A stretch of DNA of 64,000 nt from a virus: UHGV virus genome UHGV-0326727. The stretch is one strand, 5' to 3'. Shown piece after piece: positions 17,222 to 24,080 of this stretch. How positions within the stretch are numbered: position 1 is the first letter of the stretch; every line of letters starts with the position of its first letter. The notes beneath the pieces were generated by a model, which made no database searches, had not been told where the DNA came from, and saw nothing but the letters and a program-made list of their open reading frames with translations. Made by a program: the position numbers and the translations under genes.

Positions 17222-17222
<1 letters not shown>

Positions 17223-18691
17223 TGGCAGGATTAACTACAACAGGATTACAAACTCTAAGATATCAGGAAATTTTTGATAATATCAAATCAAGACTTCTTA
17301 GAGATATTTCACCAAACCTTGACGTTTCTGAAGATAGTCAATTAGGACTCTTCCTAGCTTCAATTGCAAGGTCTTTAGCAGATACCCATGAGATTCTATC
17401 AGAAGTCTATGACGGTGGAACAATTGACAAGGCCGAAGGCTTTAACCTTGATGATATTACAGCTTTAAATGCTGTATATAGATATGTTGCTCAGGCAACA
17501 AGAGGTCAGGTAGAGTTTACTGGAACGACTGGTGCTACCATTCCTTCAACAACAAGATTAAGAAGTACTGCCGGAAATATCTTTTATCCAGTTAACAACA
17601 TTACCCTAACCCCATCATATTGTGTTGAAGCTGTCCTTGAAGTTAACTCTTTACGAACTGATGCAGATTATGTTATTATTATTGATAACGTCATTTTCTC
17701 ATATAAACCAACCTCATCAGACACAATCACCACACTTCTAACAAAATTAGCAGAAGCTATTAATGGTGGTATTGTAGCAAAGGCAGAAGTCATTAATGAT
17801 GGAGCATCATTGAGAGTCTATAAAGATGAGGGTGATATCATTGCCAGAACAAACCCTATGGTTGTCACTGCGACAACATTTCTGACCTTTACAAAAATTA
17901 CAACTATTTCAGATGTAGTAGCTGAAGAGGTGGGTGCTACCCCTGCTTTGGCTGGTACACTTATTGAGATTGAGACAACTGTTGATGGTCTTGACAGTAT
18001 TTATAACAGGTATGACTTAACAACTGGTAGAAATGAAGAAACTGACACAGAACTGAGACAGAGATATTTAGAATCCTTAGCAGTTACTGGTGTGGGGACT
18101 TTAGATGCAATTGTAGCTGCTGTTAAAAGAGTTCAAGGTGTCTCAGATGCTTCAGGTGTTGAAAATGATACTGAAGAGACAAACTCAGAAGGTCTTCCAC
18201 CAAAATCTTTTAAGATTGTCGTAGTTGGTGGTCAAAATGATAATGTAGCTCAGGCAATCTGGGACACAAAACCTGCTGGTATTAGGGCTTATGGTTCAAT
18301 TTTTGGTACAGCCTATGATTTAGGTGGCTTGGCACATAATATTTATTTCAGCAGACCAACACCAAAATACGCATTTGTTAAGGTGTCTTACTCACTATAT
18401 GATGAAGAAAGCTTGACAATCCCTGAAGAGGATATCAGAGACAGTATTGTACAAGGTATTAATGCCTACGGAAGAACTCTTAAGGTTGGTAATGATGTTA
18501 TCCCTAATAGAATCTATGGACATATCTATGACGTAATTAAAGGTATTGAGATTAATGAAGTCAAAGTAGCATTATCAAACAGCCAATCAGTTCCACCTAG
18601 TGACGGGCAGTATACCACAGCAAGAATTACTGTTGACGGTGACCAATATACTGTTTGGGAAAGCAGCCAGTATACCATCACTAAGGAGTAA
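17222..18691 (+). CDS. Baseplate J-like protein (putative)
   Basis: 489 aa, position in baseplate module. Confidence 0.5.
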
Positions 18692-18693
18692 TA

Positions 18694-19548
18694 ATGTTTG
18701 AAAAGATTGATAGTGTTTATTACAAAACACTTGATGAACGAACTGTAACACAGTTTAAAGATAAGTTTATCTACACAAGCATCTTGAAAGCAATCACTGA
18801 TGAGTTACAAACACTAGAGGATGTTTGCTGGCAGATGCACACAGAGAGAAATATCAGGACATCAGTAGGTCAACAACTTGATAATATTGGCTCACTGATT
18901 AAAGTTCCTAGACCTTTAGGTGCTGATGATGAAACATATAGAGCTATGCTTTATATCCAAATCTTCCTAAGACGCTCTGACACTACTCCAACATTCTTGC
19001 AAAAAGCAATTATGACACTATATGGTGCAACTTTCTCTCAGATTTTTGAGCATATTACTCCTAAGACTGGTGGTATCGTTATCCGTATTAACACCAGAAA
19101 AAACGTTCTTGATGCTGCATACACGCTATCAAAGATTTCTGCAACAACAACTGGTTCTGCTGTTATCTTAAGAGATGTTACTTTAAAGGGGACTGCTTGG
19201 ACACCTGTAGAGGTTGCTGATTCAGCACTTGCTATTGTTGATGATAAAGAGAACTGGTTCGTGACTGATGCTAACAGGGGTCTTGTTACAAATAACACTG
19301 GTGGCTCTCTGGAGTCCAACCTAGTAGGGAGTCTTGCAGATGCTGGTGTTATTGATGGTTACTTTAAGGTTGACAGAACAGCAAACTCACAGAGTGATGA
19401 TTACATGGCTGTAGATAGGGCTAATAATAGTGGATATTTCATCGTTGGTAAAGAAGCTGTTGCAGGTGGTGCATACGGAATCATGGCTGAGGTTGCACAA
19501 ATTGTCAAAGGCAGAAAAGATAAATCACAACAAGAAGGAAATTCTTAA
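18694..19548 (+). CDS. Baseplate wedge / tail-fibre attachment protein (putative)
   Basis: 284 aa following J-like gene. Confidence 0.4.
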
Positions 19549-19850
19549 TGGCAGTTTTAAATTGGTCTACAAATGAAGTTGATACTGATGGTAATCAGTT
19601 AAAAGTTTTACCACCACCGGAAATTCAAGAGACAGGTCTTTTAAAGGGTGAACCTATGGGTAGACAGTGGTTCAACTATATTATCAACTACCTGCTGAAT
19701 AAAGTAAACGGCACTGTTGGTGAAGTTCGCTCATATGCAACTGAGCAACCAGATTTAGTGGCTAATGGCTGGAAACTAATTAAGTCTGAGACAGGGACTG
19801 CATCAACAAGCACAAGAAACCTTTACACATATGAATATGTAGGAGCTTAA
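19548..19850 (+). CDS. Hypothetical tail protein (100 aa)
   Basis: ATGA overlap; precedes tail fibre genes. Confidence 0.35.
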
Positions 19851-19852
19851 TA

Positions 19853-21028
19853 ATGGCAGTAGGTGAAATTCAAATTAGTGCCTTGCCACAAGCGGCCTTA
19901 CCAATTGATTTGAGTGATATCTTCCATCTTAAGCAAGGTGTTGAGGATAAAAGATGTACGCTTGAACAGTTGTTAGCACCTCACGCATCTTTGAGGAATA
20001 ATCCTCATGGTGTAACTAAATCACAAGTAGGTCTTGATAATGTTATTAACTCTCTTCAATTAGTTGCAGCTAATAACTTGTCAGATATTGTAAATGTTGC
20101 TGAGGCAAGAGCAAATCTACAAATTATGTCGTCAGAGGAAGTGAATAACTTAATTCAGCAACATATTGACGACAAAAGTAACCCACACAACACAACGAAA
20201 GCACAGGTTGGTTTAAGTAATGTTCAGAACTGGACAACATCCAACCTGTACAATGAAGATGCTGATAAATATGCTACCGCGAGAGCAGTGAATAATCTAT
20301 ACAAAGCTATCCAAGCATCATATCCAGTGGGGACTATTCATCTGTCTGTTAACTCTGCTAACCCATCCACTTACTTGCTTTGTGGAGGTACTTGGGAGTT
20401 GGTTTCTAAAGGTAGGGCGCTTGTTGGTTATGATACAGAAGTTAGACCTGTTGGTTCAACGTTTGGTTCTCAGACTGTAGCATTAACAAATAATAATTTA
20501 CCAGCACACACCCACTCTATCTATTTAACAGGTGGTGGTCACACACACTCTGCAAGCGTATCTATCTCTAGTTTTGATTATGGTTCAAAAAGTACATCAA
20601 CTTTTGATTACGGTACAAAAACGACTAATAGTGCTGGTGCTCACACTCACACGTTTAGCGGCACGACAAGTAATGATGGTAACCATAACCATAGAGTACC
20701 ACTGAGAGGTAATGATAGAAGTGGGGGGGATGCTATTACTGCATCTGCTTATGCTGGGGTTAATAATAATACGTATACTGATTTAGCAGGTGCTCACACC
20801 CATAGCTTCTCAGGCACAACTGCATCATCTGGTGCTCATAACCATACTGTTGCAATTGGTGCTCATAGTCACACTGTTAATATTGGTTCACACAGTCATA
20901 CGGGTACTGTTACTGTCTCTAGCTCTGAACATACACACTCAGGAACATCTGGTTCTGTTGGTGGTGGTCAAGCTTTCAGTGTTGAGCAGCCATCTTTTGT
21001 CGTATATGTATGGCAGAGAACAGCTTAA
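19853..21028 (+). CDS. Tail fibre protein with C-terminal His-x-His repeat (metal-binding tip-like) domain
   Basis: 391 aa; repeated HTHS/HSHT/HNHT motifs and SFDYG(S/T)K repeats in the C-terminal 170 aa. Confidence 0.7.
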   Translation: MAVGEIQISALPQAALPIDLSDIFHLKQGVEDKRCTLEQLLAPHASLRNNPHGVTKSQVGLDNVINSLQLVAANNLSDIVNVAEARANLQIMSSEEVNNLIQQHIDDKSNPHNTTKAQVGLSNVQNWTTSNLYNEDADKYATARAVNNLYKAIQASYPVGTIHLSVNSANPSTYLLCGGTWELVSKGRALVGYDTEVRPVGSTFGSQTVALTNNNLPAHTHSIYLTGGGHTHSASVSISSFDYGSKSTSTFDYGTKTTNSAGAHTHTFSGTTSNDGNHNHRVPLRGNDRSGGDAITASAYAGVNNNTYTDLAGAHTHSFSGTTASSGAHNHTVAIGAHSHTVNIGSHSHTGTVTVSSSEHTHSGTSGSVGGGQAFSVEQPSFVVYVWQRTA

Positions 21029-21037
21029 TTTCTTTAC

Positions 21038-21058
21038 AGGGGCTATAAAGCCCCTTTT
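21038..21058 (+). terminator. Terminator-like hairpin after tail fibre 1
   Basis: AGGGGCT-ATAA-AGCCCCT then TTT. Confidence 0.45.
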
Positions 21059-21074
21059 AAGAGGAAAATTTATA

Positions 21075-23435
21075 ATGGCAGATTACAAATTGAGTCAATT
21101 AAACTCAATCGACACAATTCGTTCAGAAGACCTATTACACATCAGAGTTAAGAAAAGACCTGAAATGTTGGGTGATGAAGACCGTAGAATGACGTATCAA
21201 GACTTCTTAGCTTCCTTCAAACTAGAAAGGTTTGTTCAGATTGCTGGTAGTACTATGGTTGGGGATTTAGGTATTGTCAAGTTACTTTACGGTGGTAAGG
21301 CCATCTTTGACCCTACAGATTCTTCTGAGATTACTATTGGGGATGTTTTAAAGACTTTTAAAATTAACTCAAATGGTCTTAAACTCACTATTGCAGATGC
21401 CACAAGGTCGGCAACTGTTTATCATACTTTGAATAAACCAAGCCCTAATGAACTTGGTATGAGAACTAATGAAGAGAATGATGCAAGATATGCAAGGCTT
21501 GCTGTCACAAATAACTTCAGCATTAGGCAAGCAATTGTAACTGATGGTGAGCAGTTAACTCTTAAGAAGGCAACCAATGCAGGTGCTTCATATATTCAAG
21601 GCAGAGATTCTAATAACCAGCAAACTTGGTATGTTGGACAGGGAAATGCAAACAGTACTAATGTATATTTGTACAATCATGCTACTGGTGCAATGTTAAC
21701 CCTTGATGCAACAGCAGCATTTAATAAGTCACTTAGAATCACTGGTCAAGTCCAACCTTCAGATTTCTCTAACTTAGATGCTAGATACTTTACTCAGACA
21801 GTCGCTAATCAGAGATTTGCACAGTTAGCTGGTAATAACACTTTTACAGGTGCTAATACATTTAGGGCTATGAGTATTATCTCAAATGCTGCTGCTATCA
21901 CACTACAATGTGCATCAGCAAATGAATCTCTGTATCTACTTGCAAAAGATTATCAAGGTGGTAACTTATGGTATGTTGGTAAAGGTAGCTCATGTGATGG
22001 TGTAACTATCTACAACTACACCACTAACACCTCTTTGGTCTTAGATGCTGCTGGAGTATCAGCAAATAAAAATGTCAGAATCACTGGTCAAGTTCAACCT
22101 TCAGATTGGGCTAACATCGACTCTAGATATATTCCGGCAGCAACATTAAGTACGATTGCAAGAACTAATGGAAGTAACACGTTCACTGCAAAGCAGGTTA
22201 TTAACACTAATGGTGAAGCTCTCGTGTTACAAGGAAAATCAACCGCCGCACTTTACATTAGGGGTAAGGATTATGATGGAACGAATAGGTGGTATGTTGG
22301 CAATGACGACGGTAGTGACACTGTTAGTTTGTATAACTATAAAACTGGTAAAAGCCTAAGCATTGGTTCCGAAGTATCAATTAACGCAAACTTAGTAATT
22401 GGTGGTCAAGTACAACCTAGCAACTTCACAAACTTTGATGCAAGGTATTACGGTAAAGCTGAAGCCGATTCAAAGTATATCTGGTCAGCAGCCAGAGGCA
22501 CAGTAAGAGAAGAAGATGGTGGCGTAGCTTGGAATCAACCTTCAGGAATCTATATTGAGACAATCAAAGGTGGTGGGGCAAGCCGTTTAGTTTCGCACAT
22601 GTTCGTTAATTCATTGTCATCAACACCTGCTGCACAATTAATGTTTGATTACAAAAATGGTGGGATGTGGTACAGAACAGCCAGAGACAGACTTGGTTTT
22701 GAGGCTGGATGGTCTAAGGTTTACAACGAAGCTCAGAAACCAACCCCTTCAGAAATTGGTGCATACACTAAAGCTGAAACTGACCAGAAGATTGCAGAAG
22801 CAATTAGTGACTCTACAGACCTGAATAAAATCTATCCAGTAGGTATTGTAACGTGGTTTAACAGCAATGTTAACCCTAATACAGCACTTCCTGGTCTAAC
22901 TTGGACGTACCTGAATAATGGTGTTGGCAGAACTATTAGAATTGCAGCAGCAAATGGTTCAGATGTTGCTACAACTGGTGGTTCAGACTCTGTAACGTTA
23001 TCTGTTGGTAACTTACCTTCACACACACATAGTTTCTCTGCGACCACTTCATCATTTGATTATGGTACTAAGACGACAAATACGACTGGCAACCATGCTC
23101 ACAATAGGGGTAACATGGAAATTTCTGGTGTGGTTGGTTGGTTCAGAAGTGATAACAGTGCATTCTACACTGCGAGCGGTGCGTTTCAGATGGGTAGTTC
23201 TCAGGCTTCACATGGATTCACAGGCTCTAACTTCACTTACGGTGCTGCTGCTGATTTCCACGCGTCAAGAACTTGGACAGGTGTAACCAACACAACTGGC
23301 AACCACGCGCACACTGTTGGTATTGGTGCTCACAGCCACACAGTTAGCGGTAACACAGGTGGTACTGGTTCTGGTTCAGCATTTAGCGTCACTAACCAGT
23401 TCTACAAGTTAATGGCTTGGGTAAGGACTGCTTAA
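21075..23435 (+). CDS. Long tail fibre protein (786 aa) with three internal ~135-aa repeats and C-terminal HxH tip domain
   Basis: Start at ATG 21075 (ORF track start 20790 lies inside fibre 1); triplicated motif (I/V)xGQVQPS(D/N)(F/W)xNxD(A/S)RY; C-terminal SFDYGTKTTNTTGNHAHN and GAHSHTV similar to fibre 1. Confidence 0.75.
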   Translation: MADYKLSQLNSIDTIRSEDLLHIRVKKRPEMLGDEDRRMTYQDFLASFKLERFVQIAGSTMVGDLGIVKLLYGGKAIFDPTDSSEITIGDVLKTFKINSNGLKLTIADATRSATVYHTLNKPSPNELGMRTNEENDARYARLAVTNNFSIRQAIVTDGEQLTLKKATNAGASYIQGRDSNNQQTWYVGQGNANSTNVYLYNHATGAMLTLDATAAFNKSLRITGQVQPSDFSNLDARYFTQTVANQRFAQLAGNNTFTGANTFRAMSIISNAAAITLQCASANESLYLLAKDYQGGNLWYVGKGSSCDGVTIYNYTTNTSLVLDAAGVSANKNVRITGQVQPSDWANIDSRYIPAATLSTIARTNGSNTFTAKQVINTNGEALVLQGKSTAALYIRGKDYDGTNRWYVGNDDGSDTVSLYNYKTGKSLSIGSEVSINANLVIGGQVQPSNFTNFDARYYGKAEADSKYIWSAARGTVREEDGGVAWNQPSGIYIETIKGGGASRLVSHMFVNSLSSTPAAQLMFDYKNGGMWYRTARDRLGFEAGWSKVYNEAQKPTPSEIGAYTKAETDQKIAEAISDSTDLNKIYPVGIVTWFNSNVNPNTALPGLTWTYLNNGVGRTIRIAAANGSDVATTGGSDSVTLSVGNLPSHTHSFSATTSSFDYGTKTTNTTGNHAHNRGNMEISGVVGWFRSDNSAFYTASGAFQMGSSQASHGFTGSNFTYGAAADFHASRTWTGVTNTTGNHAHTVGIGAHSHTVSGNTGGTGSGSAFSVTNQFYKLMAWVRTA

Positions 23436-23514: not shown

Positions 23515-23712
23515 ATGCCTACAATCCTAGCAATTCTTCTAAAAAATCTAGGTAGCTTCTTCTGGAAACTCATTTTATCCCTTCTAAGTGAATACATGAT
23601 TGAGAAAGTGTTCTTTAGGCTTGCAAGATACCTTGCAAGTAAGACAGACACACCTATTGATGATGAGTTCGTAGATAACTTAGAAAAAGCTTTTAAGGGG
23701 GAGAATAAATGA
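23515..23712 (+). CDS. Small hydrophobic protein (65 aa)
   Basis: N-terminal hydrophobic segment ILAILLKNLGSFFWKLILSLL. Confidence 0.4.
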   Translation: MPTILAILLKNLGSFFWKLILSLLSEYMIEKVFFRLARYLASKTDTPIDDEFVDNLEKAFKGENK

Positions 23713-24080
23713 AGTGGCTAGAGGAAGCTTTTAAAAATAATATTGGTGCAATTGTAGTTGGTATTTTTAGTGTTATTGGGATGTATACCACCATGCAAGT
23801 CTCGGAAGGTAAACAAGAAGTGTCTATCACAACAAAATTACAGCAGTTAGATAATTATTCCAAAAGTAATTATTCAGCTATTCGTGATTTACAGTCTGAT
23901 ATGAGGCTGCTTCAGCTAGGGATGGAGAACCAGAAAGTCCAGTTAGAGAATGTTAAGGGTGAGAACGCAAAACTTACTAAGACTCTTGATAAATTCTCTG
24001 ATAGTGTGAACAATCTGGCTCAATCAGTATCAGCCCTCCAAGCTATTACTGAAAAGAACACAAAGAATACTGAAAAGTAA
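23709..24080 (+). CDS. Membrane-anchored coiled-coil protein (123 aa)
   Basis: N-terminal TM helix IGAIVVGIFSVIGMY followed by Gln/Leu/Lys-rich heptad region. Confidence 0.4.
   Translation: MKWLEEAFKNNIGAIVVGIFSVIGMYTTMQVSEGKQEVSITTKLQQLDNYSKSNYSAIRDLQSDMRLLQLGMENQKVQLENVKGENAKLTKTLDKFSDSVNNLAQSVSALQAITEKNTKNTEK

Follow-up and report, generated by a model that had tools for sequence, protein, structure and literature searches.

The tail fibres of Felix O1-like phages, which are used in Salmonella typing, biocontrol and therapy cocktails, decide which strains are killed. The closest described system is that of Escherichia phage JohannRWettstein (Bas63), for which a cryo-electron microscopy study (Sci Adv 2025; PMC12609058) reported two fibre proteins, the short fibre gp26 (382 amino acids, aa) and the long fibre gp27 (784 aa), both with a gp37-like collar, a β-barrel needle with conserved His-x-His (HxH) motifs, and a head; gp27 additionally contains five repeat domains. 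Across the genus, the variable parts are the tips and the long-fibre repeat domains, and the authors ascribed this variability to sequence variation between species, with no mention of cassette exchange (PMC12609058). The 2010 genome paper on Felix O1 noted similarity to gp37 at the C-termini of gp76 and gp77 (PMC3185647). In phage T4 itself, the HxH motifs of the gp37 tip coordinate iron ions, as reported in the Bas63 paper with reference to Bartual et al. 2010 (PMC12609058). Here we analyse the two corresponding fibre genes, located at positions 19853-23435 of the virus genome UHGV-0326727; the window is the whole stretch of 64,000 nucleotides (nt) of this genome that was analysed.

Judged by its sequence, the window is a Felix O1-like myophage genome of the genus Felixounavirus. 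In a megablast search, positions 19853-23435 matched 231 phage records, the closest being Escherichia phage vB_EfeM_pEP20, with 95.6% identity over the full length of the query. The gene order around the fibres is the same as in pEP20 and in Bas63, with the fibre genes directly following the wedge 2, wedge 1 and platform genes, the position that they occupy in Felixounavirus, and the products are 85%, 87%, 74% and 68% identical to gp24, gp25, gp26 and gp27 of Bas63, respectively. Because both the gene order and these identities match, the first gene is assigned as the short tail fibre and the second as the long tail fibre:

19853-21028, + strand: short tail fibre gene, 391 aa; orthologue of Bas63 gp26 and Felix O1 gp76; matches the tail fibre family phrog_2097 (E=7.6e-140)
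21075-23435, + strand: long tail fibre gene, 786 aa; orthologue of Bas63 gp27 and Felix O1 gp77; full-length match to phrog_4277 (1317 bits, E reported as 0)

The pEP20 counterpart of the short fibre is likewise annotated as a tail fibre, and the Pfam architecture of the long fibre (three PF20744 domains, PF12604 and Gp10_C) is identical to that of Bas63 gp27.

Fibre tips of the T4 gp37 type

The region very probably encodes both baseplate fibres of a Felix O1-like myophage, each ending in a gp37-type tip of collar, needle and head, and each a putative metal-binding trimer. The parts of the two tips are as follows:

20273-20494, + strand: short fibre collar of the T4 gp10 C-terminal type, aa 141-214 (PF21939 Gp10_C, 68.7 bits, cutoff 27)
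20495-20692, + strand: short fibre needle, outgoing strand, aa 215-280, with HxH at 219, 230, 264 and 278, and the motifs SFDYGSK and TFDYGTK
20693-20794, + strand: short fibre head, aa 281-314, which the 2XGF alignment places between the HxH ladders of the two needle strands
20795-21025, + strand: returning needle strand of the short fibre, aa 315-362, containing HxH 315, 329, 338, 347 and 360, followed by the C-terminal segment AFSV...WQRTA
22800-23006, + strand: long fibre collar, aa 576-644, alignable with its counterpart in the short fibre; identity to relatives at the aa level has a median of 96%
23007-23102, + strand: outgoing needle strand of the long fibre, aa 645-676, carrying two HxH (650 and 674) and a single SFDYGTK
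23103-23303, + strand: long fibre head, aa 677-743 (67 aa), delimited by aligning it with T4 gp37 and the long fibre of Bas63
23304-23432, + strand: returning needle strand of the long fibre, which carries HxH 744 and 753 and leads into the conserved C-terminus ...AFSVTNQFYKLMAWVRTA (identity to relatives at the aa level, median 95%)

Homology of both tips to the receptor-binding tip of T4 gp37 is supported by matches to its crystal structure, 2XGF (residues 785-1026). The short fibre aligns with it over aa 145-362 at E=1.1e-27, and in the joint alignment all seven HxH motifs of T4 gp37 fall on HxH motifs of the short fibre, three on the outgoing strand and four on the returning strand. The short fibre has two further motifs, 219 on the outgoing and 360 on the returning strand, both at the collar end, consistent with a needle lengthened at its base. 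The long fibre tip matches 2XGF at E=2.4e-5 as a single sequence, and with a profile of 77 sequences 2XGF was the sole PDB match (E=6.6e-16). The original prediction, that the two tail-fibre genes share an HxH tip module of the T4 gp37 type, thus holds; the genes are adjacent and both on the + strand. This structural reading has behind it strong homology as well as the published structure of an orthologue, that of Bas63.

The motifs occur on both strands of each needle, four plus five in the short fibre and two plus two in the long fibre, for totals of nine and four. None of 20,000 whole-protein shuffles reached these numbers (mean 1.41 for the short fibre and 0.23 for the long one), so the multiple HxH triplets that had been read from the sequence are beyond chance. 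When only the His-rich tips were shuffled, none of 20,000 shuffles reached the observed count in the short fibre, and a fraction of 0.003 did so in the long fibre. Conservation among 63 homologues is 90% or more for most short-fibre HxH motifs, and all eight His residues of the long fibre motifs are invariant in 77 homologues drawn from prophages of many Enterobacterales. Among 31 relatives, short fibres have seven or nine motifs, and complete long fibres have four, six or seven (two long fibres are truncated); the combination of nine and four is common to the window, pEP20 and six other relatives. The C-termini of the two fibres are alike, as had been noted, ending in ...AFSVEQPSFVVYVWQRTA and ...AFSVTNQFYKLMAWVRTA; the AFSV...WQRTA segment of the short fibre goes back to the collar and parallels the gp37 ending ...IAFNYIVRLA. 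The claim that [ST]FDYG[ST]K is repeated in both fibres was borne out for the short fibre (aa 240 and 250), but in the long fibre the motif occurs once (aa 660).

A collar precedes the needle in both fibres. That of the short fibre has PDB sequence matches to 2FKK and 5HX2, and its AlphaFold2 (AF2) model (predicted local distance difference test score, pLDDT, 82-90) gave a Foldseek probability of 0.99 to gp10 structures 2FKK and 2FL8 at 31-32% identity, with an E value of only 0.1. In the long fibre (pLDDT 88-90) the collar is recognized from the alignment and from homologues, most of which carry PF21939. Both heads fall in poorly conserved sequence: that of the short fibre lies within the least conserved part of the gene among relatives (pLDDT below 60), and that of the long fibre has a median of 18% aa identity to relatives (pLDDT below 50). 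The short fibre head is presumed to form the hairpin turn and to contact the receptor, and we infer that the heads are the receptor-contacting part of the tips.

By analogy with gp37, each fibre would be a homotrimer in which each chain runs out along the needle and back, giving a six-stranded β structure, with the small head at the turn touching the receptor, which for this genus is lipopolysaccharide. Each HxH, contributed by three chains, would place six histidines around one metal ion, Fe(II) in T4, with nine predicted sites in the short fibre and four in the long fibre. The large head of the long fibre appears to have been gained at the cost of the innermost HxH pair, which is kept by alleles with six motifs, such as that of Bas63.

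Whether the histidine ladder is indeed an iron array bears on the original prediction, which had taken metal coordination by HxH in tips of the T4 gp37 type as established; for T4 this stands, with iron as the metal, as far as the account cited above goes. An improbable alternative is that the ladder holds another metal (Zn or Ni) or is metal-free, built by histidine stacking and hydrogen bonding. The Bas63 density does not resolve side chains (PMC12609058). However, all seven iron-coordinating motifs of T4 gp37 have a counterpart in the short fibre, and the invariance of all long-fibre motif histidines across homologues from prophages of many Enterobacterales fits a shared chemical role.

Several points weigh against the assignment of both ends as metal-binding gp37-type tips. 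The Gp10_C score of the long fibre, 23.2 bits, is just under the Pfam cutoff of 27. Models of the tips, computed as AF2 monomers without ligands from multiple sequence alignments of 77 (long) and 63 (short) homologues, were mediocre overall, with pLDDT of 66 and 76 and a predicted template modelling score of 0.36-0.37; they showed confident collars, long paired needle strands (pLDDT about 66-87) and disordered heads. A Foldseek search of the PDB with these monomer models gave no match at E <= 0.001, and 2XGF was not among the structures retrieved; likeness to gp10 was confined to the collar and had a non-significant E value, and pore-forming toxins were matched by chance through the long hairpin. 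A single chain out of an intertwined, metal-bound trimer is a poor query, so that this outcome counts neither for nor against a histidine ladder. Metal binding and the trimeric state of these fibres are inferred, the former from homology; in Bas63 the fibre density is too weak for side chains (PMC12609058); and for the genus it is not known which fibre is assigned to which part of the lipopolysaccharide (PMC8594841).

The comparison with described fibres brings out what is shared and what differs. Bas63 belongs to the same genus and has the same gene order, but its short and long fibres carry seven and six HxH motifs, against nine and four in the window; its long fibre has a head of about 35 aa and keeps the innermost HxH pair, whereas the head in the window has 67 aa and the pair is gone; and its repeat cassettes are of other types, except unit 2. 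The T4 gp37 tip is alike in its collar, six-stranded HxH needle, head and return of the C-terminus. It differs in that gp37, with 1026 aa and seven needle sites, forms a distal half-fibre connected to gp34, gp35 and gp36, whereas the tips in the window, with nine and four, are carried on single-gene, baseplate-attached fibres; and the gene for the assembly catalyst gp38 lies immediately downstream of T4 gene 37, whereas no gp38 homologue adjoins the fibre genes in the window. The C-terminal domain of T4 gp10 (2FKK; PF21939) resembles the collar in sequence and in the AF2 model, but it ends the protein, with no HxH needle after it. Since the Bas63 paper describes both the tip and the repeats, and the Felix O1 paper had noted the gp37 similarity earlier, these findings are already known: the shared tip, the HxH needle and the long-fibre repeats add nothing to the published work on Bas63.

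As a side observation, the long-fibre tip module (22797-23432; collar and four invariant HxH) is widespread in prophage fibres at 40-56% identity. The prophage hosts include Providencia, Erwinia, Mixta, Serratia, Xenorhabdus, Photorhabdus and Arsenophonus, and the module is often fused to PF03406 (Phage_fiber_2) or PF12571 N-termini, in proteins often named 'phage baseplate protein'.

Recombination between the two fibre genes

Having a tip module in common, the two genes had been proposed to offer a substrate for recombinational host-range switching, either within one genome or at co-infection. We consider this very unlikely. The tips are homologous and have short stretches of His-motif DNA in common, the best being 20843-20879 versus 23310-23346 (37 nt at 84%). 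Conserved 'His box' motifs in the gp37 of T-even phages were reportedly proposed as recombination sites by Tetart, Krisch and colleagues in the 1990s; the literature that we searched yielded nothing on 'His box' recombination in gp37. However, the two tips of the window are only 32% identical as proteins, with 21% gaps. The longest stretch of identical DNA in the two fibre genes measures 12 nt, which is no more than codon shuffling gives (10-14 nt), and it is located outside the tips; within the best His-motif pair the longest exact run is about 11 nt, by inspection. The tips also differ in needle length, nine versus four HxH, and their gene-specific C-termini are distinct in all relatives.

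Comparison of tips across relatives, originally suggested as a check, gave the same answer: in 960 comparisons of short tips with long tips, covering the window and 31 relatives, identity between the two genes never exceeded 54%, and no recent swap between short and long fibre tips was seen. We conclude that the shared module goes back to an old duplication or to the independent acquisition of one fold, and that it does not form a live recombination substrate between the two genes. For the two tips in one genome, recombination with each other is thus not to be expected.

Repeat units and cassette exchange in the long-fibre shaft

Exchange is found instead between copies of the same gene in different phages, along the shaft of the long fibre. 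From the N-terminus to the collar, this fibre comprises the following parts:

21075-21488, + strand: conserved N-terminal, baseplate-binding region, aa 1-138 (median 92% aa identity to relatives, mean nt conservation 0.79-0.92)
21489-21788, + strand: repeat unit 1, aa 139-238, PF20744; variable core aa 141-220, conserved linker ITGQVQPSDFSNLDARY
21789-22130, + strand: repeat unit 2, aa 239-352, PF20744; variable core aa 256-335, linker ITGQVQPSDWANIDSRY
22131-22448, + strand: repeat unit 3, aa 353-458, PF20744; variable core aa 366-440, linker IGGQVQPSNFTNFDARY
22449-22799, + strand: fourth shaft domain, aa 459-575, PF12604 (56.4 bits, cutoff 22.5)

The N-terminal region (aa 1-138) has no Pfam match. 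PF20744 (gp37_trimer) is matched in three stretches with 198.1 bits (cutoff 21.7; E=1.9e-59), and the three units are pairwise 37-47% identical (BLASTP E 1e-21 to 1e-25). The motif (I/V)xGQVQPS(D/N)(F/W)xNxD(A/S)RY occurs exactly three times, as originally counted, at aa 222, 336 and 442 (nt 21738, 22080 and 22398). The predicted triplication is therefore real, but its period is not the ~135 aa first given: successive copies are 114 and 106 aa (342 and 318 nt) apart. A fourth, partial copy of the linker tail, NEENDARY at aa 132-139, lies ahead of unit 1. The repeat boundaries (D.RY near aa 136, 235, 349 and 457) are at conserved positions among relatives, five of which lack the simple D.RY motif at one or two boundaries. 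The shaft consists of three PF20744 domains and one PF12604 domain with conserved linkers between them.

The fourth domain matches PDB 8JU3, the Mu tail fibre S, at E=7.7e-21 and is 44-49% identical to fibres of Peduovirus, Mu and P1-like phages; the homology to Mu S, P1 S and P2 gpH (PF12604) extends over aa 475-574, and the likeness covers that domain only. Unit 1 (aa 159-226) is weakly alike to T7 gp17 (4A0T, chain positions 47-113) at a marginal E=0.0017; such a domain occurs once in gp17 but as a tandem of three in the long fibre. No sequence match of the long-fibre repeats to 5NXH was found.

Mean pairwise nt identity along the gene, calculated for 29 distinct long fibre genes, alternates between conserved islands (0.7-0.9), at aa 1-140, 221-255, 336-365, 441-460, 551-680 and 741-786, and variable cores (0.41-0.58), which correspond to units 1-3, the PF12604 domain and the head. 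Compared with relatives, the four shaft domains have median aa identities of 33-54%, versus 92-96% in the N-terminus, collar and C-terminus. When cores were typed at 80% identity, 11-18 types per position were distinguished in 30 phages, and the types reassort: four-gamete violations were detected for the pairs unit 1/unit 2, unit 2/unit 3 and fourth domain/head.

The long fibre of the window is itself a mosaic. Its unit 1 is of a type common to relatives L004 and L010, its unit 2 is shared with L003 and L021, and its unit 3, fourth domain and head match, among the relatives compared, those of pEP20 only; the transitions are sharp and located in the linkers. The allele of unit 3 and the fourth domain (22131-22799) is uncommon: in a set of 50,697 phage records its closest protein is that of pEP20 at 86%, and the next is at 65.5%. 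Cassettes also change their position in the repeat array. Unit 1 of L024 (nt 432-721 of its long-fibre gene) and unit 3 of L029 (nt 1101-1390 of its gene) are 94.1% identical at the nt level, so one cassette has moved from repeat position 1 to position 3, and the type to which unit 1 of Bas63 belongs is elsewhere seen at position 3.

Exchange between the same gene of different phages at conserved junctions is thus well supported. The conserved segments of the linkers, collar and needle base would serve as crossover sites when related phages co-infect; they are natural swap junctions and, for host-range engineering, sensible splice points. In the literature searched we found no account of shaft cassette exchange, and of the present analysis only the shuffling of shaft-domain cassettes, including the change of repeat position, may be new.

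What the shuffling means for host range is conditional on the part played by the shaft in recognition. A tentative reading is that the shaft is a combinatorial system, with four shaft domains and the head independently exchangeable and flanked by conserved linker DNA (ITGQVQPSxFxNxDARY and its neighbours), so that host range would be encoded along the whole fibre. This would require that specificity is set not by the tip alone but also by the hypervariable cassettes (units 1-3 and PF12604), which could contact glycans laterally or meet the retracted tail sheath; such a role is possible but doubtful. The shaft cores are about as divergent as the head, their many types reassort and can move between positions, and the authors of the Bas63 study called the variability unexpected (PMC12609058). 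Against this, the divergence is possibly old, neutral and carried along with exchanged tips, and the long-fibre repeats of Bas63 were likened by its authors to the rod of T4 gp34 (PMC12609058). To our knowledge, moreover, no receptor-binding role has been assigned to the gp34 rod, which we count against a role of the shaft in specificity. If shaft cassettes do aid recognition, host range would be encoded along the whole fibre, beyond the tip, in a phage group of diagnostic and therapeutic use.

The long fibres of six relatives (L003, L004, L005, L013, L018 and L027) have 840-849 aa instead of about 785. The additional length comes from some 63 aa inserted directly behind unit 3, in most cases together with one more D.RY near aa 467; an artefact of open reading frame (ORF) calling was ruled out by their MADYKL start and by the insertion being real.

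Gene neighbourhood, gene starts and spacer

The remaining features lie upstream of the fibre genes, at the start of the short fibre and between the two genes:

17222-18691: wedge protein
18694-19548: second wedge protein
19548-19850, + strand: long-fibre platform protein, 100 aa; identity to Bas63 gp25 (87%) extends over 100 aa; full-length match to phrog_4141
19853-20272, + strand: N-terminal part of the short fibre, aa 1-140 (about 80-90% nt identity to relatives)
21038-21058, + strand: spacer hairpin AGGGGCT-ATAA-AGCCCCT followed by TTT (RNA fold, 7-bp GC-rich stem)

The homologue of the platform protein in Bas63, gp25, is the attachment point of the long fibre (PMC12609058). The N-terminal part of the short fibre contains the motif NPHxxTKxQVGLxNV twice, at aa 50 and 110, and by analogy with Bas63 it probably binds the baseplate.

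The long fibre gene is followed by two small ORFs and then by thymidylate synthase on the opposite strand. The first ORF (23515-23712; 65 aa), directly after the fibre gene, has a hydrophobic N-terminus and overlaps the second (23709-24080; 123 aa), whose N-terminal part includes a hydrophobic segment and which weakly matches coiled-coil families. Both are kept in Bas63 (gp28 and gp29) and in pEP20. They match only PHROGs of unknown function (402 and 4038), with no credible Pfam match, so that a chaperone gene beside the fibres was not accepted; they could be lysis or fibre-assembly proteins.

The start of the long fibre is placed at the ATG at 21075, behind the ribosome-binding site AAGAGGAAAA, giving 786 aa. 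The GTG at 20790, the start of the mechanically called ORF, was rejected because the long fibre of every relative begins with MADYKL. The reading frame of the long fibre is nonetheless open for 95 codons upstream of the ATG (20790-21074), overlapping the 3' end of the short fibre gene; this open frame is a by-product of the His/Thr/Gly/Ser-rich coding sequence and not a longer gene.

The spacer between the two fibre genes is 46 nt long and holds the hairpin listed above. A consensus terminator scan made no call at this hairpin, whose T-run is short. In about 20 relatives from which the spacer was extracted, the stem is largely kept and the loop varies, and the hairpin may be an attenuator or an RNA-stability element.

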